From positions 69,353 through 133,352 of the forward strand of contig CAWIIP010000005.1 of assembly GCA_963836235.1 (NCBI GenBank): a stretch of 64,000 nucleotides of DNA, read 5' to 3'. This document shows positions 26,158-61,712 of the stretch, in pieces; position 1 is the stretch's first letter; each line of letters starts with the position of its first letter. A program made the position numbers and the translations under genes. This DNA comes from an uncultured Pseudomonadota bacterium. Its GTDB lineage: Bacteria > Oederibacteriota > Muellerivitia > Muellerivitales > Muellerivitaceae. The notes under the pieces are model-generated. The model ran no database searches. It saw only the letters and a list, made by a program, of their open reading frames with translations, and was not told where the DNA came from.

Positions 26158-26179
26158 TTTTTCTCCCTCGCTTTAAAAC

Positions 26180-29682: not shown

Positions 29683-29715
29683 AAACCCTCCAATGAGATT
29701 CCAAATTTAGACGTC
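29683..29715 (-). promoter_or_regulatory. Conserved 5' leader/RBS element shared with the paralog at 37589-37618
   Basis: The 30 nt directly upstream of the ATG (GTCTAAATTTGGAATCTCATTGGAGGGTTT, minus strand) match the leader of the NHL paralog at 37589-37618 (GTCTAAGTTTGGGATCTCATCGGAGGGTTT) at 27 of 30 positions. Sequence further upstream and the first ~30 codons are unrelated. Confidence 0.4.
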
Positions 29716-38744: not shown

Positions 38745-40639
38745 TTATCTACGCTTCTTAACCTTCGGCTTCTTCCCTAGAACGCGCCATATCCCATAGG
38801 ACAAGAATCCCGCGCAGGTGGCGAAGGCATCTCCGGTAGCGGCCTCGCCGGTATTCTCATCCACCGATTCACAGGCGATCCCATTGTCCATTTTGGCGTT
38901 CTTGAGAAACTTCAAGGCCCTGTCTTTTTGCTCCGCCAGCAGGCTGTTCACCGAAGCCAAAACCCAGGGGTGGGGGGCGTGGGCGCAGCCCACTTCCTCA
39001 AAGGGCTTGCCCGGGAAGGAATAGGGATAGTCCGCCGAGTAAATCCAATCCCGGCACCTCTTCCAAAGGGGGTAAGAAACCTTGCAAAATCCGTAATGGG
39101 GCAGAAGCAAAAGACTTCCGGGCGGTTCGTCGTAAAGCATGTGGCCGTTTTTCGGTTCCAGGTCCGCCGACCAGGCGAACATGCGGCCCTTGGGGCCCTT
39201 CACCACGCAATAGCGGATGATGGCGGCCTTCACCAGGCCCGCTTGGCGTTGGAGGCGGCTGATTTTGACCGACAAAAGCTTGTTCTTCTCCATGCGGTAA
39301 ATCTGAGCTAAGTCCATCAAGGCCCGCCAGACCAGGACGTTGTCGTAGGTCACATAGCGTTGGGGCCAAGGGTCATCGGAGGGCAGTAGCCAGGTTTGGT
39401 ACAGGTCTTTCTTAGGGTGCTTCTTCAGCTGCCAATTCCCTCTCGAACCTCTCCAGGCTTTCCCGAACCCCCGGCTGGTTTAAAAAGCCCAGGTCCCGGG
39501 TGGCCTCCAGGTAATTCCTCAGGGCGATCAACTGGCGCGCAAAACTCATCCAGTTCAAACCCCGGTTCCAATACCGCCCCGTTCAAATAACGGCTATGCA
39601 CTCCGAAATTCCTCGCCTGCCGGGTAAAGACGTAACCCAGGACTTTCCGGGCCCATTCCGGGTCCAAGGCCAGAATCGAGGGGAAGGACCAAAGCAGGGT
39701 ATCCCTGTCCCAATAGGCCCCACTGACATAATAACGGTTGCTTCGGGAAGTCAGGCAAACCGTTTCTTCCGTGTCGATGGTCACCCCGGTCGCGTAAAAG
39801 CGGTTGAAGAAGGCGTTCACGTTCATCAGGCTATCCAGCTGGGGGTCCTTGGTTTTGGTGGTCCGCTGTTTCTCTCCCAGCCACTTCACCGTTTGCTGCC
39901 GGAGGGCCTTCCCGCCCGTCCTTTGCAGTTCCCTAGCGGAGGAGAAGGCGCCGATCTCATCCAACCCGAGCCCGAAATAAAAGTGGGCCTGCCAGGCCTC
40001 TCCCTTTTTCACTTCCTTGGATTGAAGCCAATGTAAAAGCAGGCTCTCCTCCCCTTCCAATAAGGTTTCCCGTCCCGTGGGATTTAAGGCTTGAAGGCCT
40101 TTGCGGAAGAAGAAGCGGCTGGTCTTATCTTGGGGATAGGGTGCCAAGGCAACCAGGGGGGCGGGCGAACGGAATTCGAGGGCCGGCATGTCCTCCCAAG
40201 TCTTGGCCACTAAAAAGCGGCTTCCTTGGAGGGGTTTGGTGACATTGATGCTATGCAAAAGGGAAGACCAAGCTATATCCGCAGAAAGGCCGCAATAGAA
40301 GGAGTTCTGGGAAAGGTTGGAGATCCTCAGGGAAAGAACAAAACCCCTTTGGCCGAAGGGGCAAAAGTAAAGACCTTCCACTTCCAGCCAATCTTCCTTC
40401 AGACGGAACTTCGGCAGCCAGTCCCCTTCCCTTTCCCAGGTGAAGCGGCCATCCAGGACCAAATCCTCGTCATTGATGGTGATCCGGGGGGTCAAAAAGG
40501 GGGTCGCCCCTCCTGAAAAAGCCAATAGGCCGTTCGCGCCCATGTGAATGACATTCACCTGTTCCACCGCCCCATCCCTTTCACGGATGGTTGGCAGGGC
40601 CACATACTCGTTGCCAGTCGGGATGTATTTTTCTTTCAT
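38745..40639 (-). pseudogene. Frameshift-disrupted glycoside-hydrolase-like gene: N-terminal beta-sandwich plus (alpha/alpha)6-barrel; GH15/GH125/GDE-type, family uncertain
   Basis: Two adjacent ORFs (39425-40639 and 38745-39353) lie in different frames. The upstream ORF ends in a low-complexity tail (DRPEELPGGHPGPGLFKPAGGSGKPG). The downstream frame stays open upstream to 39479 (…DLYQTWLLPSDDPWPQRYVTYDNVLVWRAL). Both pieces look like parts of one (alpha/alpha)6 glycosidase (YVSGAYWDRDTLLW; NVLVWRAL). Confidence 0.4.
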
Positions 40640-40711: not shown

Positions 40712-42805
40712 TCACTGATTCGATGGCCGGTAAGCCCCCTGTTGCACCAGGTAATCCAGGCCCCTTTTGGCCTCCGCGTGATCCGGTTGGAGTTTCAACA
40801 CCTTTTCGAATAATTTGCCCGCCAGGGCATTATTGCCCGTCTGTAAAGCCACGACGGCCCAGTTGAAATAAGCGACGATATATTGGGGATCGAGTTGGGC
40901 GGCCTTTTCATACCAAGCCAAGGCATCGTTCACCCGGCCTACGTGGTAACAAGCGTTCCCCAGGTTATAGGCATATTGAGCATTTTGGGGGTCCCATTTC
41001 TGGGCCCACTGGAAACAATTCAAAGACCTCTCATAATCCTGTTCAAGTGTCAACAAATCAGCGGCCTTGGAATGGGACGTGAGTTGGGCCTTGGCGTCGT
41101 CCCCCTTGTCCTCATAAAAAGTCCCCAGGCTGTTGCGGAAAACGCCGTAATCCTTATAAATAAAATTGCGAGTCTGATCATCCATGACAAACCCGGCTTC
41201 CACCATGTGCCTCAACCTCAGGGCGTTCCAAACCGCGTCGGAACGGGCCTCGTCCAGAACCAGCTTTTCCCCCGGCAAAAAACCCTTACCCGTCACCCCA
41301 TAAAGAACCATTTTAATTTCCGGCAGGGGCCCGTCTTTATAACGGTTATAGCTGAAATAAAGTTCCCGGTCCGGGTTCTTATCGATCATCCATTTCGCCA
41401 AGGGGGATACCGCTTCATTACCCATCGGCTGGGTGGTTCGGGGAACTTTCAAACCCGGATGGAATCGGGCCAGATTCGCCCGTACCCATTCCATAGGCAA
41501 GCCGTCGATACCCACCATCGCGACGTCGGGACGCTTTTGTTCCACCCATTGGAAATACCAGGCGGGAAAAATGATGGTGTCGCCCCGGCAAAGGTACAAG
41601 GCGTTTCGGGGAAGGGCCTTGAATCCGTTCAAAACCGAATCGTAGGAATAGGTGTAATCAGTCTGCCTTTCGGTGGAAAAACGATGGACGGCCAACCCCA
41701 CCAGCCAAAGAAGAACAAAGCCAAAAATTATTTTTTCAATCCTCGGTCTCCATTCCGCCTTCAAAATTGAAAGACCGGTTTCCAAACCCCAGGCCGAAAA
41801 CAGAAGAATGAACAAATGGGCGGTCATCCCATACTCTTGGATGAGAAAAAACTTTTCCTTTGAGAGATTCAGGTAAATTCCTAAAATCAAAACGATGGAA
41901 ACCCACGGCGCGATAAATACCCAAGCCCAGGATTTCAGGGGAGACCACCGTCGAACCGCGTAGATTCCCCCGAAAGCCGCCAAAAGCATTCCCCCAAATT
42001 CCCAGAAAGCCGCTTGAAGATAGGTCCACCACTGTTGAAACCAGACCAAGGGACCCCCACCCACATCGGGCGCCAGATATTGGCTTCTTAAAAAGTCATA
42101 AACAAAGTTATGCCACGTGACGGGATTGCCCCAATTCAAAGCCGGGCCTTGAAGCGACCTCAGGGGAAGTAAAAGATAAAGGGAAAGGCCCAATAAGCCG
42201 GCGGAAGCCAATTGGATCAAGGGCTTTTGTTCAAACCCTTTTTCCTTCCATCTAAAATAAAAGAAAAGGCTGAAGCCCGGAAGGTAAGCCATCATGGTCA
42301 TCCAGTGATTGGCGAAGGAAAGCCCCAAAAGAAAGCCAAAAAATAATAGGCGCCCTTCGAAGAAGGCCCAAAGGATCGCCAGAACGAAAAGAGCCGTCAA
42401 TTGATAGATACCGGTCTTGGCGCTTAAGGCGGCCGGAAAGGTGGTGGCCCCGGCCAGCCAAAAGAGGGCGAAAAGGGCGGCCCATCGGTTGGAGACATGG
42501 AGTTTTTGCCTCAAAAAACCGTAAAGCAGCAGGCAAACCCCCGCCGCCAGACAGGCGGACAAGAGGTTCACCCGGAAGGGGTAATGGGACAGGGGAAGGC
42601 GGGAGAAAAGGAACCCCATTAGGGTGAAAAGGGGGTAACCGGGCGGGTGGGGTATCCCCAAACTCACACTGGCGGTGACTGTTTCCGGGCTGTCATCCGC
42701 GTAGAAAGTGGGATTCAGCCCCACCAGAGCGAAGGAAAAAACCAGAAAAACCAGGAGAAAGGGCGTCAGCCGCTCCCATCGGTTGGTTGGGGGAAGGTTG
42801 TCCAT
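40712..42805 (-). CDS. DUF2723 (TMEM260-like) GT-C-fold membrane protein with C-terminal TPR repeats
   Basis: N-terminal motif YADDSPETVTASVSLGIPHPPGYPLFTLMGFLF is the DUF2723 signature, followed by about 11 TM helices. The C-terminal ~180 aa have 3-4 TPR repeats (AQYAYNLGNACYHVGRVNDALAWYEKAAQLDPQY...). Confidence 0.7.
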   Translation of the reverse strand: MDNLPPTNRWERLTPFLLVFLVFSFALVGLNPTFYADDSPETVTASVSLGIPHPPGYPLFTLMGFLFSRLPLSHYPFRVNLLSACLAAGVCLLLYGFLRQKLHVSNRWAALFALFWLAGATTFPAALSAKTGIYQLTALFVLAILWAFFEGRLLFFGFLLGLSFANHWMTMMAYLPGFSLFFYFRWKEKGFEQKPLIQLASAGLLGLSLYLLLPLRSLQGPALNWGNPVTWHNFVYDFLRSQYLAPDVGGGPLVWFQQWWTYLQAAFWEFGGMLLAAFGGIYAVRRWSPLKSWAWVFIAPWVSIVLILGIYLNLSKEKFFLIQEYGMTAHLFILLFSAWGLETGLSILKAEWRPRIEKIIFGFVLLWLVGLAVHRFSTERQTDYTYSYDSVLNGFKALPRNALYLCRGDTIIFPAWYFQWVEQKRPDVAMVGIDGLPMEWVRANLARFHPGLKVPRTTQPMGNEAVSPLAKWMIDKNPDRELYFSYNRYKDGPLPEIKMVLYGVTGKGFLPGEKLVLDEARSDAVWNALRLRHMVEAGFVMDDQTRNFIYKDYGVFRNSLGTFYEDKGDDAKAQLTSHSKAADLLTLEQDYERSLNCFQWAQKWDPQNAQYAYNLGNACYHVGRVNDALAWYEKAAQLDPQYIVAYFNWAVVALQTGNNALAGKLFEKVLKLQPDHAEAKRGLDYLVQQGAYRPSNQ

Positions 42806-43081: not shown

Positions 43082-44836
43082 CTAAAACAAAATGGCCCGT
43101 AACTCGGACGGAACGTTATCTCGGATCAGCTTCAACACCTCATCGGAGGTCTTCATTTGCAGGGCGGCCTTGGCGATTTCCTTGGATTTCTCGAAGGGCA
43201 TCATGCGGATGACCTTCTTGATTTCCGGGATGACGGAAACGCTCACCGAAAACTCATCCAGCCCCATCCCCAGCAGAAGCGGGACAAACTGTGGGTCGCC
43301 GGCCATCTCGCCGCACATGCCTACCCATTTCCCGGCGTTGTGGCAGGCGTCCACCGTCATCCGAATCAGCCGCAGGATAGCGGGATTAAGCGGGTCATAA
43401 AGATAAGCCACCGATTCGTTCACCCGGTCCACCGCCAGGGTATATTGGATGAGGTCGTTGGTACCAATCGAAAGGAAGTCCAGTTCTTGAATGAGAATAT
43501 CCGCCACTACCGCCGCGGAGGGGATTTCGATCATGGCGCCCACCTCGATGCCGGAACGGAAAATCTGCCCCTCTTTCTTCAACTGTTGAACGCACTGGTT
43601 GAGGAGCACTTTTGATTCACGAACTTCCGCCAAGGTGGAAATCATCGGAAACATAACTTTGATAGGCCCATGGGCCGCGGCTTTGAGGATGGCCCGAAGC
43701 TGGGCCTTAAAAAGGTCCGGGCGCTTCAGGCATAAACGGATGGCCCTTAACCCCAGGAAAGGATTACTTTCGTTGAAGGCGTTGAGGTGGGATAAAAACT
43801 TATCCCCGCCCAGGTCGAGTGTCCGGATGATGGCTGGATTGACCCCCGTTTTGGTAGCCAGTTCTTTGTAGGCTAAGTACTGTTCCTCTTCCGTCGGAAT
43901 CTCCTCCCGGTTCAGGAACAAAAACTCGGTTCGGAAGAGCCCAATCCCTTCCGCGCCATGCTTGAAAATTTCATCCAATTCCTGGGGAATCTCAATATTG
44001 GCGGCCAGGGTCACTTGGTGCCCATCCGGGGTTGTCGCGGGAAGGTTGCGCAGTTCTTCCAGGCTCTTCTGAAAAGCCTCGTAACTGTCTTTTAACCGCT
44101 GATACTGCTTAAGCGTGGGGGGGAGGGGGTTTACCACCACCAGGCCCTTGTTGCCGTCCACGATGATCATGTCCCCGTCTTGTACTTCGGCGGTAAGAGT
44201 TTGCATGCCCAGGACCGCCGGAAGCCCCAAGGAACGGGCGACGATAGCCACGTGGGAAGTCCGCCCCCCCACATCCGTGCAGAAGCCCTTGACGGTGCCG
44301 GTTTGCATGCTGACCGTATCGGAAGGCGCCAGGTCGTTGGCGATAACAATGACTTCCCGGTCCAGTTTCTTTAGTTGGTCCTTCTCGGCGCCGGTTAGGT
44401 TCTGGACAAGACGATTACCTACGTCCTGGATATCCCCGCCCCTTTCCCGGAAATAATTATCGTCGAGGGACGCCATAACCGTTTTAAACTTTTCCAGCCC
44501 CTCATACAGGAGGAACTCGGCGTTCAAACGGCGGGTTTGGATAGATTTGGGGATTTCCTCCATGAAAAGGGGGTCATCCAGGACCACTTGGTGGGCTTGG
44601 AATATCGCGGCGTGTTCTTCCCCTAATTTCGCCTTCATCTTTTCTTCAAGTTCCGAGATTTGGACACGGGTTTTCTCGAGCGATAACTGGTAACGGTCCA
44701 GTTCGTCCTTGATCTCCTCGGCCCTTAAATTCCGCCGGGGCGCGGAAAGACCTTGCGGATGGTAAAGAAAAGCGGGGCCGATGGCGATGCCGCCGGAAGC
44801 CGGAATTCCATTGTAAATTTTCTCTGCCACGAACAA
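43082..44836 (-). CDS. ptsI: Phosphoenolpyruvate-protein phosphotransferase (PTS Enzyme I)
   Basis: 584 aa. Phosphohistidine-domain motif GGRTSHVAIVARSLGLP and the PEP-utilizing C-terminal domain. Confidence 0.9.
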   Translation of the reverse strand: MFVAEKIYNGIPASGGIAIGPAFLYHPQGLSAPRRNLRAEEIKDELDRYQLSLEKTRVQISELEEKMKAKLGEEHAAIFQAHQVVLDDPLFMEEIPKSIQTRRLNAEFLLYEGLEKFKTVMASLDDNYFRERGGDIQDVGNRLVQNLTGAEKDQLKKLDREVIVIANDLAPSDTVSMQTGTVKGFCTDVGGRTSHVAIVARSLGLPAVLGMQTLTAEVQDGDMIIVDGNKGLVVVNPLPPTLKQYQRLKDSYEAFQKSLEELRNLPATTPDGHQVTLAANIEIPQELDEIFKHGAEGIGLFRTEFLFLNREEIPTEEEQYLAYKELATKTGVNPAIIRTLDLGGDKFLSHLNAFNESNPFLGLRAIRLCLKRPDLFKAQLRAILKAAAHGPIKVMFPMISTLAEVRESKVLLNQCVQQLKKEGQIFRSGIEVGAMIEIPSAAVVADILIQELDFLSIGTNDLIQYTLAVDRVNESVAYLYDPLNPAILRLIRMTVDACHNAGKWVGMCGEMAGDPQFVPLLLGMGLDEFSVSVSVIPEIKKVIRMMPFEKSKEIAKAALQMKTSDEVLKLIRDNVPSELRAILF

Positions 44837-44935
44837 CTCCTTTAAATTTCAGCCATTGGCGGTCAGCGGGTGGCTGGCAGCTTGTTTATCTTTCATATTT
44901 TGCTGACAGCCATCGGCTGCCGGCTAAAAGCCGGT

Positions 44936-45208
44936 TTATTCCTTTTCCCCGAACTTGTTTGCGAATAGCTGTTTTAAAGCCGCCAAGGCTTCTTTGGCGT
45001 CGTCACCCTCGGCCGTCATTTCCAATTCCGTTCCCTTGGCCGCGGCCAAAGTCATCAGGCCCATCAGGCTTTTAGCATTTACGTTTTGAATGCCGTGGTT
45101 GATAAAAATCTGGCTTTTGAATTTATTGGACACCTTCACCAACTCCGCGGCGGCCCTTAAATGAAGCCCCAGCTTATTGATGATGGGCAATTTTTCGGTT
45201 ACTTTCAT
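44936..45208 (-). CDS. ptsH: HPr-family phosphocarrier protein
   Basis: 90 aa. Active-site region NKLGLHLRAAAELV contains the catalytic His. Confidence 0.85.
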   Translation of the reverse strand: MKVTEKLPIINKLGLHLRAAAELVKVSNKFKSQIFINHGIQNVNAKSLMGLMTLAAAKGTELEMTAEGDDAKEALAALKQLFANKFGEKE

Positions 45209-45329
45209 TGGACTCCCCTTTGATCCTTCATTCTCCTACCCCCAAAAGAAGAGGGGGCGCCATCTTGTCTTTCATAAAAGGGTTGAACTTCAACCCGAAA
45301 ACGAGAAAGAAGATGGCATGTCCCCTGTT

Positions 45330-46181
45330 TCATTGCCCACTTCCCAGCGGGAGAACAGGGGGCGCACTCAGTGTCGGCCAAAAAGCCAGCATGAGAGCGA
45401 ATAAAACCGCGGCGTAAAACATTTGGCTGGGGCTGATCTTGCGGTGCAGGGCAAAGGTAAAAAGCCCTACAATCGCGGTAAAAAAAGTCAGCTTGAGAAT
45501 GAACAACCCCACTTCTTTTTCCAATACCGACAAGTTGACGAAAACAATCAAAACACCCAAAAGCAGGATGGAAGCCAGCTTTAAACCCCGAATCGCTTCC
45601 TGAAAACCATACTTTCGGAGGGTCAAAACCACCTGGTCGCTATGGCGATACCCTTGCAGGAATCCCATGAGCCGGATGCCCACATGGGCGATATTGAAAA
45701 CCGCCAGGAAGAGGAGCGGGATAATCCAATATTGCCCCTTGATCTGAAACGCGTGGGACAAAACCAGCGTCACCGCGATCAACCCGCAATAAGGGCGGAT
45801 GGTGGCCCAAAAAAGGTTGTCCCCCATGGCCGCGATAGGGCCCATCATTCCAATTTTTAGCGCGCTGATCTCGTCCTCTTTCTGCTTTTGCTTGTTTCTG
45901 GGCTCCTTCTGTTTGTCCTCTTCCATTCGAAGGATAGCCCCCAACACGAAGGAAGCCATGTAAGGATGGGTATTGAAATACTCCATGTGCCGGGTCATGG
46001 CCTGGGCCCTCTCCTCGCGCGAAGTGTAAATTTTTCTCAAGACCGGCATCAAGACAAAGGTTACCCCATAGCTCAAATAACGCTCGAAATTCCAAACCAC
46101 CTGGAGAAAAAAGACCCTCCAAAAACAATGGGCCAAGTCAAAGACCGTAACCCGGGCCGCGGGCTTCTCGTCGGGGGTCAA
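45330..46181 (-). CDS. PTS mannose/fructose/sorbose-family IID component
   Basis: EIID signature HMEYFNTHPYMASFVLGAILRMEE. 283 aa. Confidence 0.8.
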   Translation of the reverse strand: MTPDEKPAARVTVFDLAHCFWRVFFLQVVWNFERYLSYGVTFVLMPVLRKIYTSREERAQAMTRHMEYFNTHPYMASFVLGAILRMEEDKQKEPRNKQKQKEDEISALKIGMMGPIAAMGDNLFWATIRPYCGLIAVTLVLSHAFQIKGQYWIIPLLFLAVFNIAHVGIRLMGFLQGYRHSDQVVLTLRKYGFQEAIRGLKLASILLLGVLIVFVNLSVLEKEVGLFILKLTFFTAIVGLFTFALHRKISPSQMFYAAVLFALMLAFWPTLSAPPVLPLGSGQ

Positions 46182-46957
46182 GCGGGTTCCCCTTTCCCCA
46201 CGTAAAACAAGGTGAGGATAAACCCCGCGAAGAGGGCAATGGCGACGAGGTAAACTCCCGGCAAGGGCGACAAGACCGCCAGGGTCATCATGGACACAAT
46301 GGACAGGATCAAATAGATGGCGGTCTTTTTTTCAACCAAGAGGTCGATGACCGCCGAGCACCCTAGGGCCAAGAGAAGCCAATGGGCATAGTAAAAACCT
46401 TCTATGACCTTGCCATCCAAAAGGCTGCCTAAAAGCGTATAAAACCCGGCGCTGAAATGGGCGATGGTCAGGCAAGCCGCCGACACGAGGAACCCTTTCA
46501 ATAGTTGTTCCATCAACACGAAAAAGTTAATCCACTCAAATGTTTTTAAATGGGAGCTGAAGGCCATCCGCTGCGCGAAATGGAGCCACCGGACATGGAA
46601 CTTACGTAGGGCCACTTCGACCTCCGTGCTCAAAACCGCCAGGGGGATCGCGATTCCCAAAGCATAGGTCATGACGGCTTCGGGGCTTTGGCCTTTTACC
46701 AACCCACAGGCCAGGGCGACGGCGGTGCCCGTTAACATCGTCAGGTCCAGGGGTAAATGGGCGCCCACCGGCAAATCACCGATCCAAATGAGTTCTATCA
46801 AAGCCCCCATTTCCAATCCGATGTCGGCCCGTCCAATAAGCCAGCCCACCACCGGGCCGGTCACAATAGGCCTTGAAACCATAAACTGGCCGACCGCCGT
46901 CTCGTCTAAACTTAAAAAGGCCATCACGAGCGCGATGGAAAACCAGTGATCCATCAT
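46178..46957 (-). CDS. PTS mannose-family IIC component
   Basis: 259 aa with 6-7 TM helices. It lies between the IIB/GH57 genes and IID and overlaps both neighbours by 4 nt. Confidence 0.7.
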   Translation of the reverse strand: MMDHWFSIALVMAFLSLDETAVGQFMVSRPIVTGPVVGWLIGRADIGLEMGALIELIWIGDLPVGAHLPLDLTMLTGTAVALACGLVKGQSPEAVMTYALGIAIPLAVLSTEVEVALRKFHVRWLHFAQRMAFSSHLKTFEWINFFVLMEQLLKGFLVSAACLTIAHFSAGFYTLLGSLLDGKVIEGFYYAHWLLLALGCSAVIDLLVEKKTAIYLILSIVSMMTLAVLSPLPGVYLVAIALFAGFILTLFYVGKGEPA

Positions 46958-49119
46958 TTGCCTTTTTTCTCCAATAGCTGGGTGACCACCTTCGTTTTAA
47001 AGGTTTCCGCGGGTTTGAGGGAGACTTCCCATCCCAATAAAAGACAGGAGCCTTGATAGACCTTCTCAAAACCACCCTCGGATTGGGAAATGGTTTCAAC
47101 CGGATACCGCCAAAACTTGGCCGGATGGGGAGACTTAAAGTTGATTTCCAATTCCAACCAGCCGTCCCGCATGCCCATCTCCGTCACTCCCGTTTCCTCT
47201 CCAACACTGTTTAACCGGGGCTGGAGGAGATCCCGTCCTTTCACAAAATAATTCCGGTCCGGAGAATCTCCCGCAAGGAGGGTAAGGTTCCATTCCACGA
47301 GAAAAAGGAAATTCTGGCTGTGAGGGCCCTTATTTTGGAGTTCGTAGCCTGCTTCCAGCGTGAAATCTCCTGCCTCAAACTCGAGTTTTTTAGCCAACTT
47401 TAACGGCAGTCCCTCCACATGCCCCAACCGGGATAGGACCACTTGTGCCGGTTGGCCTTTTTTCTTGGGTGCTTGGATTTTCGATTCAAATAGGCCGTTA
47501 CGAAAATCCCCCCGTTCCTCGTAACGATTCGTCATCATTTGCTCAACCGTGGTTAAATCCGTCACGAAATGTTCGGTCAGGCTAACTCGGCGGGCCGAAT
47601 CATAGAAAAGTTTCTTGTCCAGTCCTGGTTCCTTCATACGGACCATGTCATGGATGCTGGACACCCCACCCTGGGGCTGGCCCTGGTTTGCGGCGGCCAC
47701 GAGTTTGTTATGGTAGGCCTCTTTGCGGCGGGTCAGGGTATCGGAAAGGTTGATTGGGTTTTTCAGGTAATCTAACTCGGTCAAGACCCCGCCAACAGTT
47801 TCCAACAGGGCGTGATAATTCAGGCTCTCCACGACAATTTCATCTCTTCCATCTTTATTGAAGTCCGTCTCTTGGACTTGTACCCCAAAAGTCGAAGAAG
47901 GCAGGAGGGATTCTGCCAGTTTTTCCGCTTCAATCAATTCACGGTAAACGGCAAATCGCAAATGGTTCAAGTAAAGACCACCGAAAACACCATGCCAGTA
48001 AGGGCAATTGCACTCTCCCCGGTAAAGAGCCCGAACGGCTTTATCCAAAACCGCTTTTTGCTTAGAGGTGGCTTTTTTAGACAACCTCTGCCGGGCTTTC
48101 TCGACCTTGGCGGAGACCCATAAAAGCTTTTTATGCATATGACTGCTCTCGACATATTTGGTGAAAAAGTTTCGCCAAAATCCACCTTTTAAATAACGCT
48201 CGTAACGGGGCATTTCTCCCCGATCTCTCACCTCATGGCGGATGTGCTCAAATTCCTCGGCCGCGTCTGCCGGTAAAGCCCATTCTCCCATTTCGGTATA
48301 GGAACCCGTGGGCAGACTGAGGATGCCCTTTGGCGCCTGCTGGGCGACATATTCGGAGAATGTGGCCAGATTCAGCCAGGAGGAATTATCTTCCAGAGCG
48401 GTAAAGAACCTCTCCAACCAACCTTCCTCGTAAACCCACTTGTAGGTATCAGGCCATCCCCCGAACTTTTCACCGTCGTCCATCAAGACCACGCAACGGT
48501 CCCCCTCTTCCGTGGCGACGGACTGGAGATATTGAAGGCTTTCTTCCACGGCCTTGAAAGGAACCATGTATCGCATCTTTTCAGAAATGGGAAAAACACC
48601 CGCCGTTTCACCCTGCTCTTCCATGAGGTAATAGCCGAAGGTTTCCTCTTCCTTTAATCCCACGGCCTTGAAGTGAGCGTCGTCCATCACGATATATTTC
48701 ACGCCAGCATCCGCGAGGTTTTTGGTCAAATGGGGTTCCCAAACACGCTCAGCGGTCCACATACCTTTCGCCTCAACTTTAAAATGCTTCCTTAGATAGT
48801 CGGTCAGCATCCGGATTTGTCCCGCCTTATCCCGATCCGGAAGAACCGACAGAATAGGCTCATACATGCCCCCCGTAAAAAACTCAATCTGGCCCCGGTC
48901 GGCCATTTCCTTCAACATTTTGAAATAGGGGGGACGGTTTTGTTCCAGCCATTCCAAAAGGGGTCCGGTCACGTGAAAAGTGCATTTCACCTTGGGATGC
49001 CTATGGAGAATGTGGAGGAAGGGTTCATAAGACTTCTTGAACAATTCCTCAAAAACTTGACCGAAATTGCCTACCGGTTGATGGTTGTGGACACCGAAGA
49101 TAAACGTGACTTTTTTCAC
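46954..49119 (-). CDS. Glycoside hydrolase family 57 alpha-glucan-active enzyme (4-alpha-glucanotransferase/amylopullulanase-like) with C-terminal extension
   Basis: The N-terminus MKKVTFIFGVHNHQPVGNF matches the GH57 HxHQP start. A (beta/alpha)7 region follows, then about 250 extra C-terminal residues. 721 aa. Confidence 0.75.
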   Translation of the reverse strand: MKKVTFIFGVHNHQPVGNFGQVFEELFKKSYEPFLHILHRHPKVKCTFHVTGPLLEWLEQNRPPYFKMLKEMADRGQIEFFTGGMYEPILSVLPDRDKAGQIRMLTDYLRKHFKVEAKGMWTAERVWEPHLTKNLADAGVKYIVMDDAHFKAVGLKEEETFGYYLMEEQGETAGVFPISEKMRYMVPFKAVEESLQYLQSVATEEGDRCVVLMDDGEKFGGWPDTYKWVYEEGWLERFFTALEDNSSWLNLATFSEYVAQQAPKGILSLPTGSYTEMGEWALPADAAEEFEHIRHEVRDRGEMPRYERYLKGGFWRNFFTKYVESSHMHKKLLWVSAKVEKARQRLSKKATSKQKAVLDKAVRALYRGECNCPYWHGVFGGLYLNHLRFAVYRELIEAEKLAESLLPSSTFGVQVQETDFNKDGRDEIVVESLNYHALLETVGGVLTELDYLKNPINLSDTLTRRKEAYHNKLVAAANQGQPQGGVSSIHDMVRMKEPGLDKKLFYDSARRVSLTEHFVTDLTTVEQMMTNRYEERGDFRNGLFESKIQAPKKKGQPAQVVLSRLGHVEGLPLKLAKKLEFEAGDFTLEAGYELQNKGPHSQNFLFLVEWNLTLLAGDSPDRNYFVKGRDLLQPRLNSVGEETGVTEMGMRDGWLELEINFKSPHPAKFWRYPVETISQSEGGFEKVYQGSCLLLGWEVSLKPAETFKTKVVTQLLEKKGK

Positions 49120-49129
49120 TTTAGACCTC

Positions 49130-49624
49130 TCACTGACCGCTGTTCTTCAACTGATGAATGTATTTTTCCAATGATTCTTTGACATCACCTGGCACCGCTC
49201 GCACTTCCAGTTCCACTCCCTGCCTTTTTAGTTCTTTAAAGGACTCAATATCAGCTTCATGAACGCAAACCGTTTTACTAACTTGTTGTTTCCCCTCACA
49301 AAAATGCATCCCCCCAACATTCACCGCCGATAAGGCCCCACCCCTCTTGCCAAACTCCACCACATCCGAAGGATTAGAAAAAAGAAGGAGGCTACGATCC
49401 TTGGAATCCCCCTTGCGACAGTTTTGGGCCGCCTCTTCCACGGTATAAAAACTCACCTTTAACCCCGAGGGAACCGCCATCTCCATGAGGGTCTTTTGCA
49501 TCGAATTTTTGGCAATAACGTCATTTACCACGACCAGACGCTCAATTCCCAGGGCCTTAACCCAACCCACAACCACTTGCCCATGTATAAGCCGGTCATC
49601 AATTCGAATCAGTTGGATTTCCAT
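49130..49624 (-). CDS. PTS mannose/sorbose-family IIB component
   Basis: IRIDDRLIHGQVVVGW contains the phosphorylatable His of EIIB-Man. Confidence 0.8.
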   Translation of the reverse strand: MEIQLIRIDDRLIHGQVVVGWVKALGIERLVVVNDVIAKNSMQKTLMEMAVPSGLKVSFYTVEEAAQNCRKGDSKDRSLLLFSNPSDVVEFGKRGGALSAVNVGGMHFCEGKQQVSKTVCVHEADIESFKELKRQGVELEVRAVPGDVKESLEKYIHQLKNSGQ

Positions 49625-49650
49625 TCGGCCTCTCGAATCCAGAGTTAGCC

Positions 49651-50052
49651 CTATTTTTTAAGGAGTTCTAACGACGTCACAATACTTTCTCGGGTCGCGC
49701 TTTGAATCTCCGGAATCAACCGGTTCATTTCGGCTTCATCCCGACTCGAAACGACCTTGATCAGCATCGGCAGGTTCACTCCAGTCACAATCTGAAGTTT
49801 ACGGGTTTGAGCCAACCGAAGAGCCACATTAAAAGGCGTGCCACCCAGCATATCCACCAATACCAGCGTCCCCGTTCCCATTGGATCCACGGTTTCAAGA
49901 GCTTTCTCCATTTTAACCTGGAAAGACTCCATAGAATCCTGTGAAATTAGATCGATCGCCAAAATGGCTTCCGTTTCACCCAAAATCATTCGGAGGGTGG
50001 AAAGAAGGGCGAGGCCGAGTTCCCCGTGGGTTGCCACAATCACGCCTATCAT
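49651..50052 (-). CDS. PTS mannose-family IIA component
   Basis: MIGVIVATHGELG contains the EIIA-Man active-site His. 133 aa. Confidence 0.75.
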   Translation of the reverse strand: MIGVIVATHGELGLALLSTLRMILGETEAILAIDLISQDSMESFQVKMEKALETVDPMGTGTLVLVDMLGGTPFNVALRLAQTRKLQIVTGVNLPMLIKVVSSRDEAEMNRLIPEIQSATRESIVTSLELLKK

Positions 50053-50400
50053 TAAAAATCTCCTTTAAAATCGCCAAAAGGTTTTTTGAGTCTGTTTCAA
50101 TAGTCCGAAGATGCTTTTTTTCACCAAGAGATTAAAAGGAACCCCCGGCATTATCAACTTAATGTTCCCGGGAATGGGGATATAACCGAGAAATCCCAGC
50201 GGAGAGCCAGAAAAATCAGAGTAAATACATGGTTTTCAATAATAAAAATCGACTGCTTGTTACTTTTTGGGCACTGAAATTGAAAAAAGCGGAAACCTCT
50301 CCACGTTGACATTCACCATTTCAATGGACAATCTTATGAAGGAAAGCATTTCTTGGCGCCTGTTAAAGATAAAGCTGCTCAGGTATCGTTCGAACATTAA

Positions 50401-51672
50401 TTACATTACCAGCCTTCGGACAATGGCTTTTCCCAGCTTTTCCGGGCTATGCCGCACGTAATCTTCCTGATGGAGTAAATTCACTTGTATTAATTCAACA
50501 TCAAGAGCCTTAACTGCTTCTTCATCCACCACAACGGGCTTCTGTCCATTAGCTTCGTAACGGGCCAATAGTTGCGCGGGAACCTTTTCCTTGTTAGCGA
50601 TGACGTAGTGGATAAACCCAGGACTGGTGTGCTTGAGGATGGCTTTCACGTGGTCAGAAACGGTAAGGTTATCCGTTTCTCCCGGTTGTGTCATGACATT
50701 ACAAACATACATTTTCACCGCGCGGGCCAGGGCGATCGTTTCGGCCACTTCCGGAATCAAAAGATTCGGAAGAATGCTGGTATAAAGACTACCCGGCCCA
50801 AAGACAATGGCGTCCGCTTCCAATATGGCCTTCAAAACATCTTTGTTGGGGCGGATTTTTTTTTCTTTTAGCATAATCCGGTCAATAGGGGATTTTCCGT
50901 TTGGAATCCGGGATTCCCCAGTAATAATTTTTCCATTTTTCAGCTTGGCCTGGAGCGTCATATTCTCGAAAGTGACGGGCATGACGGTGCCCCGGGTCGC
51001 CAATACACGGCTGGATTCCTCCACGGCCCTGCCAAAATCACCCGTGATTTCCTTCATAACTGTAATAAAAAGATTTCCAAAACTATGGCCCTTCAGGTCG
51101 CCGTGGCCCTTGAACCGATATTGGAAAAGATCTTTGAGGAGGGTTTCCTGGTCGGATAAAGCAACAATGCAATTGCGGATGTCCCCCGGAGGCGGGGTTC
51201 CAAAATCCCTTCTGAGCCTACCCGAACTTCCGCCGTCATCGGCGACCGTCACAACCGCGGTAAGGTTGCTGGTGTAGTGTTTGAGGCTGGAAAGGACATT
51301 GGGAAGCCCCGTACCCCCGCCCACCGCCACAATCCGGGGCCCGCGCTTGAGGCGTGTTCGCTGATAGGCGATATTGATGAATTCCTTCTCCCTCGCAGGA
51401 GCGTAAACCGTGAGTACCGAAAAGATCAAACGCCTTATACCCAAAATCAGCCCCCAAAAAGCCAGGAGCATGAAAAGAAAATCGACGAACTTGAGGTGTT
51501 TGAGGTGATCTTCCAGTTCGACAATTACCGGTGGGCGCAAATGGATACCCCCCGTATGTTGACTCATGACGCCTGAGAATCCGACGTAAAGGACAATCAT
51601 CGAGAGGACAATGAGAAAAATCCAGCGTTTGAGACGCAAACCAGGATAGAGCCAGGGGAAACTCAACATCAA
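50401..51672 (-). CDS. YvcK/CofD-like (UPF0052) gluconeogenesis-factor family protein with N-terminal TM extension
   Basis: VAVGGGTGLPNVLSSLK ... VVTVADDGGSSGRLRRDFG ... GDIRNCIVAL are YvcK family motifs. The first ~90 aa carry two TM helices. It overlaps hprK by 4 nt. Confidence 0.8.
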   Translation of the reverse strand: MMLSFPWLYPGLRLKRWIFLIVLSMIVLYVGFSGVMSQHTGGIHLRPPVIVELEDHLKHLKFVDFLFMLLAFWGLILGIRRLIFSVLTVYAPAREKEFINIAYQRTRLKRGPRIVAVGGGTGLPNVLSSLKHYTSNLTAVVTVADDGGSSGRLRRDFGTPPPGDIRNCIVALSDQETLLKDLFQYRFKGHGDLKGHSFGNLFITVMKEITGDFGRAVEESSRVLATRGTVMPVTFENMTLQAKLKNGKIITGESRIPNGKSPIDRIMLKEKKIRPNKDVLKAILEADAIVFGPGSLYTSILPNLLIPEVAETIALARAVKMYVCNVMTQPGETDNLTVSDHVKAILKHTSPGFIHYVIANKEKVPAQLLARYEANGQKPVVVDEEAVKALDVELIQVNLLHQEDYVRHSPEKLGKAIVRRLVM

Positions 51673-52640
51673 ATTTTGCCCTTGAGTTTGGGAGAATTGC
51701 GCCTGGCCGTTTCCTCCGCCATCATACGGGAAACTCGGTCGGCAAACTCCTGGGCAGTGAAGTAACCCAGTTTCATCAGGCGGTGGTTCATGGCCGCTAC
51801 TTCGATGATCACCGCCAGGTTCCGGCCCGGCCTCACCGGAATAAGGAACATGGGAATTTCCACGTCAAAAATCTTGTGCGTGGCGGGCGTCAAGCCCAGC
51901 CGGTCGTATTCCTTTTTATTGTCCCATTCTTCTAACCGGATAATCAGTTCGATACGTTTTTTGTCGCGAATCGCTCCCACACCAAAGAGACTTTCAATAT
52001 TAATGATCCCCAAGCCTCTTATCTCCATGTGATGCTTGATGATTTCAGACCGGGAACCCATCAATATCCGGTTGGCCAGCCGCTTGATGTAAACCAGGTC
52101 GTCCGCCACCAGCCGGTGGCCACGTTCTACCAGATCCAAGGCGCACTCACTTTTCCCGATGCCCGAGTTTCCCAAAATAAGTATCCCCACTCCATAGACA
52201 TCCAAAAGCGTCCCATGGATGGTCGTTTCAGGGGCGAATTCCTCCTCAAGGAAAACCGAAATTTCAGAAACAAACTTGGTCGTGGGCGTAACAGTCGAGA
52301 AAAGGGGGATTTTCCGCGCCTCGGCCTCGGAAACCAAATCTGTGGGCGGTTTCATTTTGTGGGTCACTACGATGCAGGGAAGCCGATGGGACAATAGGGT
52401 CTTCAATATTTTTTTACGCTGGGTTGGTTTTAGCGTTCGAAGGAAATGGATTTCGGTTTTCCCCAAAATCTGGAGGCGTTCGTAAGGAAACCACTTGAGG
52501 TACCCGGTCAGGGCCATTCCCATCCGGTTGATGTCCACACTGACGATAAACCGATCGGACATTCCCGCTTCGGCCACGGGGGAAAGATGGAGCCGTTCCT
52601 TGGCCTGTTGAAAAAAAGACTCCACGGAAATTTTCTTCAT
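51669..52640 (-). CDS. hprK: HPr kinase/phosphorylase
   Basis: P-loop GILILGNSGIGKSECALDL and the HprK C-terminal signature. 323 aa. Confidence 0.9.
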   Translation of the reverse strand: MKKISVESFFQQAKERLHLSPVAEAGMSDRFIVSVDINRMGMALTGYLKWFPYERLQILGKTEIHFLRTLKPTQRKKILKTLLSHRLPCIVVTHKMKPPTDLVSEAEARKIPLFSTVTPTTKFVSEISVFLEEEFAPETTIHGTLLDVYGVGILILGNSGIGKSECALDLVERGHRLVADDLVYIKRLANRILMGSRSEIIKHHMEIRGLGIINIESLFGVGAIRDKKRIELIIRLEEWDNKKEYDRLGLTPATHKIFDVEIPMFLIPVRPGRNLAVIIEVAAMNHRLMKLGYFTAQEFADRVSRMMAEETARRNSPKLKGKI

Positions 52641-52680
52641 GGTCCCCGTCGCTTTGGCTTTTTCCCTGCCGGGAAGCCGG

Positions 52681-53145
52681 TCAATGCTTAAGTTTTTCTT
52701 CTTCTTGGATGATTTTGACCACGTCCTCGGGGGTTTTCGCCGAGAGGAGCGACTTGCGGAAATATTTATCTTTTAAGAGGCTGGAAATACGGGCCAAGGC
52801 TTTCAAGTGGGCCCCCGCAGCTCCTTCCGGGGCCACCAGCAGGAAAAAAATATTCACAGGCTCACCATCCAATGAGTCAAAGCTGATCCCGTCGACAGAA
52901 AGCCCGAAAGCCGCCGCCAAATCCGAAACGGTATCCGACTTTCCATGGGGAATGGCTATTCCCTGGCCAATTCCTGTGGAGCCAAGCTCTTCACGCTCCA
53001 TGAGTGTCTGAAGCATTTTCTTTTTGTCCTTCACTTTGCCCGTTTTGACCAAAAGTTCCACCATCTCTTTAATGGCGTCTTTCTTGTTTTTGGATTCCAG
53101 GGACATCTTGATGGCGTCAGCCGTTAAAAAATCCAATATCTGCAT
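52681..53145 (-). CDS. ptsN: PTS IIA-like nitrogen-regulatory protein (EIIA-Ntr, fructose/mannitol-type IIA)
   Basis: 154 aa. GIAIPHGKSD contains the phospho-His. It lies directly downstream of hpf, as in the rpoN operon. Confidence 0.8.
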   Translation of the reverse strand: MQILDFLTADAIKMSLESKNKKDAIKEMVELLVKTGKVKDKKKMLQTLMEREELGSTGIGQGIAIPHGKSDTVSDLAAAFGLSVDGISFDSLDGEPVNIFFLLVAPEGAAGAHLKALARISSLLKDKYFRKSLLSAKTPEDVVKIIQEEEKLKH

Positions 53146-53202
53146 GAAACTTCCTCCCGAAAAGCCAGTTGATAACTTTCAGCCGCAACTAAAACCCGCC
53201 GT

Positions 53203-53742
53203 TCAATATTCCGGCTCAATCAGACCGATATGATGATCCTTCCGCTTGTAAACCACTCCCGTTCGTTCGGTCTCGGCATTCGAAAAAACCAAAAACTCAT
53301 CTTTGGAAGAAGCCAATTGTAAAGCTGCTTCCTCAATCGTCATGGGCTTCACTGCGTATTTTTTAGTTCGTAAAACCTTGACTCCATCTCCTTCCATCGA
53401 TGCCGGAACAAGTCCAAAAGGTTTCGAACTCATGGCTTTAGGATGTTCGGGTCGATGATGTTCCGCTCGTTTGTCTTTTTGCTTGTGCGCCTGCTTCTCC
53501 AATCTTTGCAGCGCCACGTCAATGGATTGATACATATCGTGGGAGGAAGCCTTGGCGCTTAATTTCAAGCCCTTTGCGCTCAAGGTTACTTCGCAAATAT
53601 GCAACTTCCTCTCAAAGTTCAATACCACATGAGCTTCTTTGATTTTTCCCAAGTATCTTTCCACTCGCTGAATCTTGTCCTCAATGTGGATTCTTAATCC
53701 ATCGGTGAGTTGCTCATGGCGGCTGGTAATATGAATTTTCAT
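53203..53742 (-). CDS. hpf: Ribosome hibernation-promoting factor, long form
   Basis: MKIHITSRHEQLTDGLRIHIEDKIQRVERYL matches the RaiA/HPF fold N-terminus. The C-terminal extension is typical of long HPF. Confidence 0.85.
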   Translation of the reverse strand: MKIHITSRHEQLTDGLRIHIEDKIQRVERYLGKIKEAHVVLNFERKLHICEVTLSAKGLKLSAKASSHDMYQSIDVALQRLEKQAHKQKDKRAEHHRPEHPKAMSSKPFGLVPASMEGDGVKVLRTKKYAVKPMTIEEAALQLASSKDEFLVFSNAETERTGVVYKRKDHHIGLIEPEY

Positions 53743-53931
53743 TATTTTTCCTATTGGATAAAAAAGACCGGATTTCTTCAGCCCTATTCGGGCGGAAAAA
53801 CCCTATAAAAGAATTGTCATTCTAACACTCGAAAACCGGAAGTCAATCCGCACTCGGTTTTCATAACATTGGACAGCCAGAAGTTCCAAGAGGAATCACT
53901 TTGTCTCCAAATAGAATGTTCAATTGATTTG

Positions 53932-55461
53932 TCACAATTTTCGCCGTTGGGAAGCCGAAGGAATCTTGAGTTCTTCACGGTATTTGGCGATGGTACGGCG
54001 AGCGATACTGAGTCCCTGGTCGTTTAAGACTTGCATGATCTTTTGATCCGAAAAGGGTTTTTGAGGGGATTCCTGAGAAACCAGTTCCTTTATCTTTTCC
54101 TTGACCGACAAAGAAGACACATCCAAACCGTCCACCGATTCTAACCCGCTGGTGAAAAAATATTTTAATTCAAATAATCCCCGAGGAGTCTGAACGTACT
54201 TGTGGGTGGTCACCCGACTGACCGTGGATTCATGCATGCCGATGATGTCGGCAACTTGCTTTAACGTCAGGGGCTTTAAAACACTGATTCCAATTTCAAG
54301 AAAATCCCTTTGAATGCGGAAAATGGCTTCCGTAACCCGGAAGATGGTTTTACGCCGTTGCTCGATATTCTTGATCAGCCAAATAGCGGATTGAATCTTA
54401 TTTTCCAAAAACTTTTTGGTTTCTTTCCCCTCAAGAGCTTTTTTGTCCTTCATTAGCCTTCGGTAATAAGGCGAAATCCGAAGTTTTGGCACCGGTTCGT
54501 CGTTCAAAACCACAACGTACTCCCCGTCCATTTTACGAATGTACACATCCGGCGTGATGTACTTAGTCTCATTCTCCTGAAAGGACCTTCCCGGCTTCGG
54601 CTCCAGCGTTGCGATAAAAGTCAAAATTTCCCTTAATTGTTCATCGGTGCAACCCAAGGCTTTGGTAATAGCGGGATATTTTCTCTTTTCCATTTCCTCG
54701 AAATGGTCATGCACCACTTGGTAGGATTTGCGGGCCGTTTCTCCAGTTTTATTTTCCAATTGGAGCAAAAGACACTCCCTTAAATTTCGCGCACCCACCC
54801 CCGCCGGCTCAAAGGTCTGGATCAACCCCAAAATCCTCTCTATCTCTAGGGGTGATACTTCTTGTGATGTCGCGATATCCTCCACCTTGTCCGTTAAATA
54901 CCCGTTATCGTCCAAGTTTCCGATGATGACTTTACCAAGGATCTTTTCCTGATCATCCTTGGCAACCAGCAGTAACTGCCATTCCAAGCTTTCAGAGAGA
55001 GTCTGAGAACGGGTGATGGAAGCTTCAATAAAATCCCGTTTTTCTTGGTCGGTTTGGGAACTCTCCCTGCCGCCATATTCGGTGTCGTTGGATTCCCCAT
55101 ATTCCTCCGACTCTCTGTAAAGATTCCAGGTGTCGTCGCTGAATCGATCGCCATCCTTTAAATGCTCCACCAAGTCAGTCTGATGACGGTCGCGAGCCAA
55201 TTCCAAAAGTTTGTCGGAATCAGGATTGGATTGTTCTGCGGGAGGAGCATCTAATGGTTCGGTAGGAGAAGCTTTATCAATGGTCTCAACTGGAGTTTCT
55301 TCATTTTCTTCCTCCAAGGTGGGGTTCTCCAGCATTTCCTTTTCCACCCATTCCTTCAATTCCAGAGTGGAAAGTTGAAGGATCTTCATGGCTTGTTGCA
55401 GCATCGGAGTCATAATCATCCGTTGCTGCATCTTTTGGTTCATTCCGAACTGCTGCCGCAT
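53932..55461 (-). CDS. rpoN: RNA polymerase sigma-54 factor
   Basis: N-terminal Gln/Leu-rich region I, core-binding domain, HTH, and the C-terminal RpoN box ARRTIAKYRE. Confidence 0.9.
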   Translation of the reverse strand: MRQQFGMNQKMQQRMIMTPMLQQAMKILQLSTLELKEWVEKEMLENPTLEEENEETPVETIDKASPTEPLDAPPAEQSNPDSDKLLELARDRHQTDLVEHLKDGDRFSDDTWNLYRESEEYGESNDTEYGGRESSQTDQEKRDFIEASITRSQTLSESLEWQLLLVAKDDQEKILGKVIIGNLDDNGYLTDKVEDIATSQEVSPLEIERILGLIQTFEPAGVGARNLRECLLLQLENKTGETARKSYQVVHDHFEEMEKRKYPAITKALGCTDEQLREILTFIATLEPKPGRSFQENETKYITPDVYIRKMDGEYVVVLNDEPVPKLRISPYYRRLMKDKKALEGKETKKFLENKIQSAIWLIKNIEQRRKTIFRVTEAIFRIQRDFLEIGISVLKPLTLKQVADIIGMHESTVSRVTTHKYVQTPRGLFELKYFFTSGLESVDGLDVSSLSVKEKIKELVSQESPQKPFSDQKIMQVLNDQGLSIARRTIAKYREELKIPSASQRRKL

Positions 55462-58159: not shown

Positions 58160-58211
58160 ATAAAAAAGCCCGGGATTTTTCCCGGGCTTTGAGAATTAAG
58201 TTCGCTTTTTC

Positions 58212-59312: not shown

Positions 59313-59344
59313 AACCTCAGGAACCTCCCGACAAGATGACAGCT

Positions 59345-60703: not shown

Positions 60704-60747
60704 CGGTACGGCCTCACGTTCATTTTTCAGGCTTTAGATAACATACT

Positions 60748-61698: not shown

Positions 61699-61712
61699 TT
61701 TAACCGTATTTT

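Follow-up and report, generated by a model that had tools for sequence, protein, structure and literature searches.

The 64,000-nt stretch analyzed here (contig CAWIIP010000005.1 of assembly GCA_963836235.1; hereafter the window, whose first nucleotide is position 1) carries on its minus strand a gene for a glycoside hydrolase family 57 (GH57) alpha-glucan enzyme, lodged between the IIB and IIC genes of a mannose-family Enzyme II (EII) of the phosphoenolpyruvate (PEP)-dependent phosphotransferase system (PTS). The reading that we favor, at a probability of roughly 0.55, is that a glycogen/maltodextrin enzyme was recruited into a regulatory PTS cluster, where it would couple the turnover of storage glucan to the state of the PTS. 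The link between this type of GH57 and rpoN-PTS genes recurs in several uncultivated phyla, which suggests a signaling system tied to stored-glucan turnover. The first-pass annotation of this DNA had described a mannose-family PTS operon; the genes do not stand alone and are the tail of an rpoN-hpf-ptsN-hprK regulatory cluster. Their order is IIA, IIB, GH57, IIC, and IID, with HPr and Enzyme I (EI) directly following, and immediately 5' of IIA the same strand carries genes with profile matches to YvcK-like proteins, HprK, PtsN, HPF, and RpoN. The genes of the cluster are as follows.

59966-62375, upstream of rpoN: lptB, lptA, and lptC
53932-55461, minus strand: rpoN (sigma-54), the head of the cluster (PF04963, PF04552, and PF00309)
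53203-53742, minus strand: hpf, ribosome hibernation/sigma-54 modulation protein (PF02482 and PF16321)
52681-53145, minus strand: ptsN, EIIA-Ntr type (PF00359, 3.3e-42), with the histidine of GIAIPH (His67) present
51669-52640, minus strand: hprK, HPr kinase/phosphorylase (PF07475 and PF02603), with the P-loop GNSGIGKS present
50401-51672, minus strand: YvcK/CofD-like gene (PF01933, 1.6e-113, residues 114-400), overlapping hprK by 4 nt
49651-50052, minus strand: EIIA, mannose family, 133 aa (PF03610, 4.7e-25), with phospho-acceptor His9 in IVATHGELG
49130-49624, minus strand: EIIB, mannose/sorbose family, 164 aa (PF03830, 1.7e-49; TIGR00854 above cut-off), with His14 in IDDRLIHGQV
46954-49119, minus strand: GH57 alpha-glucan enzyme of the 4-alpha-glucanotransferase type, 721 aa, GTG start
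46178-46957, minus strand: EIIC, mannose family, divergent, 259 aa (PF03609, 5.7e-26)
45330-46181, minus strand: EIID, mannose family, with a divergent C-terminal third, 283 aa, TTG start (PF03613, 5.4e-50)
44936-45208, minus strand: HPr (ptsH; PF00381, 4.5e-29), with His16 and the HprK target Ser47 present
43082-44836, minus strand: Enzyme I (ptsI; TIGR01417, 2.9e-197), with His195 in GGRTSH (the motif begins at residue 190)

The open reading frames (ORFs) for IIA to IID lie exactly where the first-pass annotation had placed them, and both of the 4-nt overlaps that it described are present, one between GH57 and IIC (46954-46957, ATGA) and one between IIC and IID (46178-46181, TTGA). These overlaps uphold its view that the enzyme is embedded in the mannose-family EII and translationally coupled to it. 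In addition, a GAGG motif lies a few bases 5' of the GTG start of GH57. The phosphorylation residues are intact in IIA, IIB, HPr (both the histidine and the serine), EI, and PtsN, and the P-loop of HprK is also present; by motif, we take His9 of IIA and His14 of IIB to be the equivalents of His10 and His175 of Escherichia coli IIAB.

The identity of the glycoside hydrolase, a claim of the earlier annotation, is secure. The protein matches PF03065 at 6e-54 (183.8 bits against a cut-off of 21.2), the middle helical domain PF09094 at 1.6e-29, and the C-terminal beta-sandwich PF09095 at 3.7e-73, covering profile positions 1 to 282 of 284. Residues 1 to 693 align over all three domains with the 4-alpha-glucanotransferase of Thermococcus litoralis (TLGT; PDB 1K1W) with an E value of 1.8e-147. 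All five conserved regions of GH57 were found (HNHQP, GQIEFF, WTAERVW, MDDGEKFG, and ECNCPYWHG), and the nucleophile E124 (in WTAERVW) and the acid/base D215 (in MDDGEKFG), which align with E123 and D214 of TLGT, are invariant in 77 of 77 aligned relatives. By sequence, the window protein is a genuine GH57 of the Thermococcus 4-alpha-glucanotransferase type; its residues predict a catalytically intact 4-alpha-glucanotransferase or amylase, acting mainly by transfer or mainly by hydrolysis. It shares with the T. litoralis enzyme (1K1W, 1K1X, and 1K1Y) the three domains, the catalytic Glu and Asp, and the motifs HNHQP, GQxE, WxxERVW, DDGEKFG, and CNxxYWHG. Unlike that enzyme, it is bacterial, from a lineage with relatives in bog and palsa; it exceeds the archaeal protein by about 60 residues, with insertions following residue 340 and within the C-terminal domain; and its gene lies in a PTS/rpoN cluster and not among maltodextrin genes. 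Because the alignment of the N terminus (MKKVTFIFGVHNHQP) with the archaeal enzyme starts at residue 1 and, by eye, no hydrophobic signal-like stretch is seen there, the enzyme is read as cytoplasmic and would work on internal alpha-1,4-glucan. Members of the same subfamily that have no rpoN/PTS linkage sit in glycogen gene clusters, where their neighbors include a second GH57, a GH57 branching enzyme (BE_C domain), a GalT-like protein, a GlgC-like nucleotidyltransferase, and a GlgA-type starch synthase, and the subfamily is therefore placed in storage alpha-glucan metabolism. No further glycogen gene was found in the window.

The surroundings of this gene were compared in 80 species-level loci holding the nearest relatives of the window GH57, 20 from candidate division FCPU426, to which the window is assigned, and 60 from elsewhere, all of them from metagenome-assembled genomes (MAGs), whose ORFs were searched with the window's own proteins; individual loci are given by L numbers. 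The close relatives of the window proteins (67 to 88% identity) come from FCPU426 MAGs of bog, palsa, and other environmental (MFD-labelled) metagenomes, a few of which carry the wrong label ("proteobacterium," "Firestonebacteria," or "bacterium"). GH57s of this type occur widely, across many phyla, in MAGs from the environment, and these sources speak against the thermophile-like carbohydrate toolkit proposed in the first-pass annotation. GH57 lies in the cluster in all 20 FCPU426 loci, so that orthologous operons do keep the gene, and every junction that can be reached is in the same order, amidohydrolase-RpoN-HPF-PtsN-HprK-YvcK-IIA-IIB-GH57-IIC-IID-HPr-EI; several contigs break off within the cluster, so that the order is seen there only in part. 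Since one order holds in all 20 loci wherever the contigs reach, the arrangement is far from chance. The homology-inferred spacing between GH57 and IIC is -4 nt in 11 of 17 FCPU426 loci, and that between IIC and IID is mostly -4 nt. Against the closest relative, L008, the ratio of nonsynonymous to synonymous substitution rates ranges from 0.02 to 0.10 for seven genes, with values of 0.04 to 0.10 for IIA, IIB, GH57, IIC, and IID; these five genes are under strong purifying selection.

The backbone of the cluster is not new. Zuniga et al. (2008) described an ancestral rpoN cluster of rpoN, hpf, ptsN, ptsK/hprK, EIIA-Man, ptsH/ptsO, and ptsI (EI-R group), with a putative mannose-class transporter in the variant of Desulfovibrio vulgaris, and named no glycoside hydrolase in it (PMC2405797). 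The window is collinear with this backbone (lptCAB, rpoN, hpf, ptsN, hprK, EIIA-Man, HPr, and EI), with rpoN, hpf, ptsN, hprK, EIIA-Man, ptsH, and ptsI all on the minus strand within 43082-55461, and, as proposed for D. vulgaris, it also carries IIB, IIC, and IID. It departs from the described cluster in having GH57 between IIB and IIC, in the four unrelated genes between lptB and rpoN, and in its host, which belongs to an uncultivated non-proteobacterial phylum. A literature search on GH57 with PTS or HPr, and on DUF1926, found no description of the linkage, most subscription journals being outside its coverage. The components and the backbone are already known; the novelty lies in a glycogen-type GH57 being a recurrent member of the rpoN-PTS cluster.

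All four EII subunits score above the Pfam cut-offs (PF03610, PF03830, PF03609, and PF03613). IIC and IID fall far under the NCBIfam subfamily cut-offs (the best NCBIfam matches are of the Aga and Man types, all far under cut-off), and IID spans only positions 3 to 198 of the 265 of the PF03613 profile; therefore, this is a divergent EII subfamily. Against solved structures, IIC matched the known IIC chains weakly (3.4e-9) and IID the known IID chains at an E value of 6e-34. Among the 103 IID homologs found, identity falls sharply from the FCPU426 clade (at least 48%) to 40% or less. Two of the distant IIDs belong to clusters that lack GH57 (L081 and L082), with the orders RapZ-IIA-IIB-IIC-IID-HPr-EI and hpf-ptsN-hprK-rapZ-yvcK-IIA-IIB-IIC-IID-HPr-EI. 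Unlike these, the window has no RapZ, and its YvcK-like gene comes right after HprK. The nearest IID homologs outside FCPU426 thus stand in clusters without GH57, which agrees with the ancestral cluster of Zuniga et al. (PMC2405797), and GH57 is therefore an addition to a pre-existing cluster type.

Outside FCPU426, rpoN or PTS genes stand beside GH57 in 21 of 60 loci, or in 18 of the 42 whose upstream sequence extends for 3 kb or more; both counts are lower bounds, because RapZ was not among the queries. The partners differ between lineages. The Mcinerneyibacteriota cluster (L032) reads RpoN-HPF-HprK-IIA-IIB-GH57-IIC-IID-HPr-EI, and two unclassified MAGs have RpoN-HPF-HprK-IIA-(IIB)-GH57-HPr-EI without IIC and IID. 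In Desantisbacteria, HPF-PtsN-HprK is followed by a GH57 branching enzyme and then by GH57-HPr-EI. At least 13 loci of Methylomirabilota, Rokubacteria, and associated bins share the order RpoN-HPF-RapZ-GH57-MetK, and in the listed loci of this group the GH57 start overlaps the rapZ stop. Five Omnitrophota loci and L053, a record labelled Planctomycetia whose closest GH57 relatives are from Omnitrophota, have PtsN-YvcK-GH57-HPr-EI-PGI-NTP transferase-MetK-AhcY, where PGI is phosphoglucose isomerase; fructose-bisphosphate aldolase is also among the hexose-phosphate genes 3' of EI in Omnitrophota. The gene after EI in Omnitrophota encodes either a bact-PGI_C/SIS-type PGI (PF10432; L083, and L084 at 11035-12121) or a cupin-type glucose-6-phosphate isomerase (GPI; PF06560; L085 at 11034-11813), so that two non-homologous families fill one fixed operon position, a case of non-orthologous replacement. 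A search with the L053 GH57 for a cultured organism with the arrangement returned close matches that were all uncultivated and mostly from Omnitrophota.

In total, the GH57 subfamily occurs in rpoN/PTS clusters without IIC and IID in L027, L036, L041, L046, L053, L057, L083 to L085, and the Methylomirabilota loci, and in glycogen clusters besides, so that the PTS permease is not a constant partner of this enzyme. In L057 (7104-7975) and L046 (7071-7998), genes for a soluble EIIA-Man and EIIB-Man stand beside GH57-HPr-EI, the IIB histidine being present in L057, and a stretch of about 8 kb to each side showed no IIC or IID; the locus would thus provide EIIB~P with no membrane partner. In a neighbor-joining tree, the FCPU426 GH57s form one clade, and the linked GH57s occupy at least six separate places. 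The cluster proteins of FCPU426 and Mcinerneyibacteriota are only 26 to 40% identical, and the FCPU426 EII proteins are closer to those of the GH57-less L081 and L082 than to those of the GH57-containing L032; recent transfer of the cluster in one piece therefore fails to account for the shared order.

These observations can be joined in the following scheme. The locus is an rpoN-linked regulatory PTS cluster, lptCAB ... rpoN-hpf-ptsN-hprK-yvcK-EIIA(Man)-EIIB-[GH57]-EIIC-EIID-ptsH-ptsI, of which the FCPU426 version carries a complete mannose-class EII. Into it, a cytoplasmic GH57 of a type otherwise found in glycogen clusters would have been recruited, to be made from the EII transcript in translational coupling with IIC and IID. 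The remodeling or mobilization of stored alpha-glucan (glycogen or maltodextrin) would then be expressed together with the PEP-EI-HPr-EIIA/B phosphorelay, which reports carbon supply and probably controls GH57. The coupling might act through co-expression only, or through direct contact or phosphorylation as for E. coli HPr and glycogen phosphorylase. The first-pass annotation had offered, as one of two possibilities, a PTS by which the turnover of glycogen or alpha-glucan is sensed; its direction appears to be right, and its mechanism is conjecture.

Two known systems provide partial models. E. coli HPr binds glycogen phosphorylase (GlgP) and phosphorylates it on histidine (PMC13324651; reviewed in PMC11046441). 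As there, the window pairs a PTS phosphocarrier with a glycogen-breakdown enzyme, which makes the E. coli case a plausible model for action of the phosphorelay on GH57. The two differ in that GlgP, a GT35 phosphorylase, has its gene apart from those of the PTS and is coupled biochemically without gene linkage, whereas the window offers gene linkage only, with no PTS-specific histidine in GH57. In proteobacteria, PTS-Ntr controls the accumulation of the storage polymers polyhydroxyalkanoate (PHA) and polyhydroxybutyrate (PHB), and it resembles the window system in that an rpoN-linked regulatory PTS is connected with how a carbon-storage polymer is metabolized. The polymer in that case is a polyester, the regulated genes are unlinked, and the PTS cluster includes no gene for a polymer-metabolizing enzyme. 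PHA regulation is the subject of two reviews (PMC9049629 and PMC7204398).

Several points weigh against the favored reading. The sample of 80 loci consists of the closest relatives of a single GH57 and is not random, and PTS genes in the other genomes were sought with the window proteins as queries, which makes the absences soft. The tree has no support values and so leaves unsettled whether the linkage had many origins or is ancient and was repeatedly lost. Co-transcription is deduced from spacing only, and the tight coupling of GH57 to IIC and IID in FCPU426 could signal a transport-linked role. In addition, a comparison of PTS-adjacent with unlinked GH57s showed no histidine or other residue specific to the former, the differing columns being mostly conservative exchanges, and hence no sequence mark of a dedicated phospho-acceptor or docking site, and direct regulation is therefore put forward as a conjecture; the comparison itself would count as evidence neither way, regulation by binding being compatible with it. 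We also advance, tentatively and as something rather unlikely, a stronger form of the proposal, in which GH57 is a direct target, by binding or by histidine phosphorylation, of HPr, EIIA-Man, EIIB-Man, or RapZ/YvcK, and glycogen turnover is a conserved output of the rpoN-linked regulatory PTS (EI-R, HPr, and HprK).

The first-pass annotation had also suggested a PTS dedicated to a glucan-derived sugar. In such a catabolic operon, the EII would import and phosphorylate glucose, maltose, or another alpha-glucoside, and GH57 would process the product or channel it into or out of glycogen. The position of GH57 between IIB and IIC, with the 4-nt IIC overlap kept in 11 of the 17 FCPU426 loci, fits this explanation, as does the purifying selection on IIC and IID, which makes a working permease likely. 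The GH57 domain also gives a weak match to the GH38 N-domain (1.1e-6), which recalls the E. coli pair MngA and MngB, a PTS permease and a GH38 enzyme. We nevertheless regard it as unlikely. The subfamily also occurs in HPr-EI, PtsN, YvcK, or RapZ clusters without IIC and IID (Omnitrophota, Desantisbacteria, Methylomirabilota, and the two unclassified MAGs), and because so many linked clusters lack these subunits, the handling of an imported sugar is improbable as a general explanation. The enzyme is of the three-domain TLGT type, whose characterized relatives act on unphosphorylated alpha-1,4-glucans, and is read as cytoplasmic; the operon contains no phosphatase or phospho-glycosidase; and the FCPU426 EII is nearer to the EIIs of the GH57-less rpoN clusters (L081 and L082) than to that of L032. 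A role in the use of imported sugar may still apply to FCPU426 specifically.

A second alternative is that GH57 is a neutral passenger, inserted once into an ancestral FCPU426 cluster and carried vertically since, with the cases in other phyla due to block transfer or chance. The single clade formed by the FCPU426 GH57s fits one ancestral event, and the lack of PTS-specific GH57 residues also favors this explanation. Set against this, the linkage recurs, with varying partner genes, in at least six widely separated GH57 clades and in five or more phyla; the 26 to 40% identity between the FCPU426 and Mcinerneyibacteriota proteins speaks against recent block transfer; and the stop/start overlaps are conserved. 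The rpoN gene is usually single-copy, and repeated chance adjacency within about 3 kb is for that reason very unlikely. We consider the passenger explanation distinctly improbable.

Very improbable, finally, is a PTS acting as a PEP-dependent kinase of intracellular sugar, in which GH57 would free glucose from maltodextrin or glycogen and EIIB~P, with or without IIC and IID, would phosphorylate it in place of an ATP-dependent glucokinase, in the manner of DhaM-DhaL-DhaK: precedents are known in the Dha system and in the phosphorylation of intracellular sugar by EII-Man, soluble IIA and IIB stand beside GH57 without IIC and IID in L057 and probably L046, and PGI, sugar-1-phosphate nucleotidyltransferase, and fructose-bisphosphate aldolase genes follow EI in Omnitrophota, but many linked clusters (Omnitrophota and Methylomirabilota) have no IIA-Man or IIB, the window gives no sign of glucokinase loss, and the idea is purely inferential.

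Three non-coding elements bear on how the EII and GH57 genes may be transcribed.

50289-50304, minus strand: terminator-like hairpin and T-run 3' of the yvcK-like gene, GTGGAGAGGTTTCCGC then TTTTTTCAAT
50124-50158, minus strand: block found conserved by alignment 5' of IIA, GTTGATAA-N-CCTTTTAATCTCTTGG, with a possible promoter TTGATA-N17-TAATCT
45280-45296, minus strand: terminator-like hairpin GGGTTGA-AGT-TCAACCC followed by TTTTAT, in the gap between IID and HPr

Given the hairpins at both ends and the conserved block upstream, IIA-IIB-GH57-IIC-IID may form a transcription unit of their own inside the larger cluster. Besides the window itself, L008, L001, L003, and L004 share the conserved block at 50124-50158, and L016 shares it in part; in the form GTTGATAA ... 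CCTTTTAAYCTCTTGG it occurs 5' of IIA in the FCPU426 genomes that have a long spacer between yvcK and IIA; it may be a promoter for the five genes or a regulator site. A sigma-70 consensus scan, which the conserved block did not pass, gave nothing upstream of IIA. The sigma-54 pattern TGGCAC-N5-TTGCW, with up to 2 mismatches, had 20 matches against 25 expected, none of them convincing upstream of IIA, and a search with Rfam at gathering thresholds found no RNA family anywhere in the window.

Upstream of the EII genes, the YvcK/CofD-like protein (423 aa) is extended at its N terminus by about 110 residues, which by eye look hydrophobic and resemble two transmembrane segments. The CofD proteins encoded before GH57 in Omnitrophota (L083 to L085, at about 5730-7001) are 414 to 420 aa long, and that of L082 is 316 aa long. 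The genes between lptB and rpoN include, at 57278-59896 on the minus strand, a CDP-alcohol phosphatidyltransferase, a myo-inositol-1-phosphate synthase, and an S1/P1-type nuclease, a family that is to our knowledge uncommon in bacteria; the nuclease is followed by an amidohydrolase (55899-57257) that adjoins rpoN throughout FCPU426. The first two of these suggest a pathway for an inositol phospholipid or an inositol-phosphate solute. Farther upstream of rpoN, lptB, lptA, and lptC are accompanied by genes for a lipid A acyltransferase and a HAD hydrolase, possibly KdsC-like.

On the other side of the cluster, a frameshift breaks a GH125-like gene at 38745-40639 on the minus strand into two ORFs (404 and 202 aa), with EI, HPr, and a TMEM260-like/tetratricopeptide repeat gene standing between the gene and the operon. 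The C-terminal piece matches GH125 at 3.2e-15, and neither the 404-aa piece nor the N-terminal 370 residues have a Pfam match. The homolog in L008 (16405-18163) is a single ORF of at least 586 aa; the split marks either a pseudogene or a fault of assembly. The first-pass annotation was right that this (alpha/alpha)6 gene is disrupted; its further proposal, that the gene may be the debranching or exo-acting partner of GH57, was rejected, the only family match being to GH125, an alpha-mannosidase family, and nothing tying the gene to GH57, to glucans, or to their debranching. Very large, likely membrane proteins of 697 to 1006 aa are encoded in a run at 15266-35148 and 40712-42805 on the minus strand, with weak PMT_2, YfhO, TMEM260-like, and PA14 matches that suggest GT-C-type glycosyltransferases. 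Among them are S-adenosylmethionine methyltransferases and NHL-repeat beta-propeller proteins of 334 to 340 aa (8029-9033, 28660-29682, and 37619-38641), and the region may be a glycan or protein-glycosylation island. At 541-6304, an ABC sugar-uptake set on the minus strand (a solute-binding protein and two permeases) and the gene for a GH3 glycosidase that bears an Fn3-like domain are divergently oriented; the set has no relation to the PTS locus and shows that the organism has a non-PTS route of glycoside uptake.

We know of no study of the in vivo role of the bacterial three-domain GH57s annotated "DUF1926", and a full-text literature search for DUF1926 gave no papers; the linkage described here adds a genomic-context subclass to these proteins. 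The rpoN-linked PTS of Gram-negative bacteria and candidate phyla (EI, HPr, HprK, EIIA-Ntr, and EIIA-Man) is widely assumed to be regulatory, with hardly any known outputs beyond the proteobacteria. The linkage to GH57 provides a concrete and testable candidate for such an output, the control of stored alpha-glucan, together with a defined set of proteins for in vitro work. Should GH57 prove to be a direct target, this would be an unrecognized PTS output across FCPU426, Omnitrophota, Mcinerneyibacteriota, Desantisbacteria, and Methylomirabilota, and an analog of the action of E. coli HPr on glycogen phosphorylase that is hard-wired into an operon.

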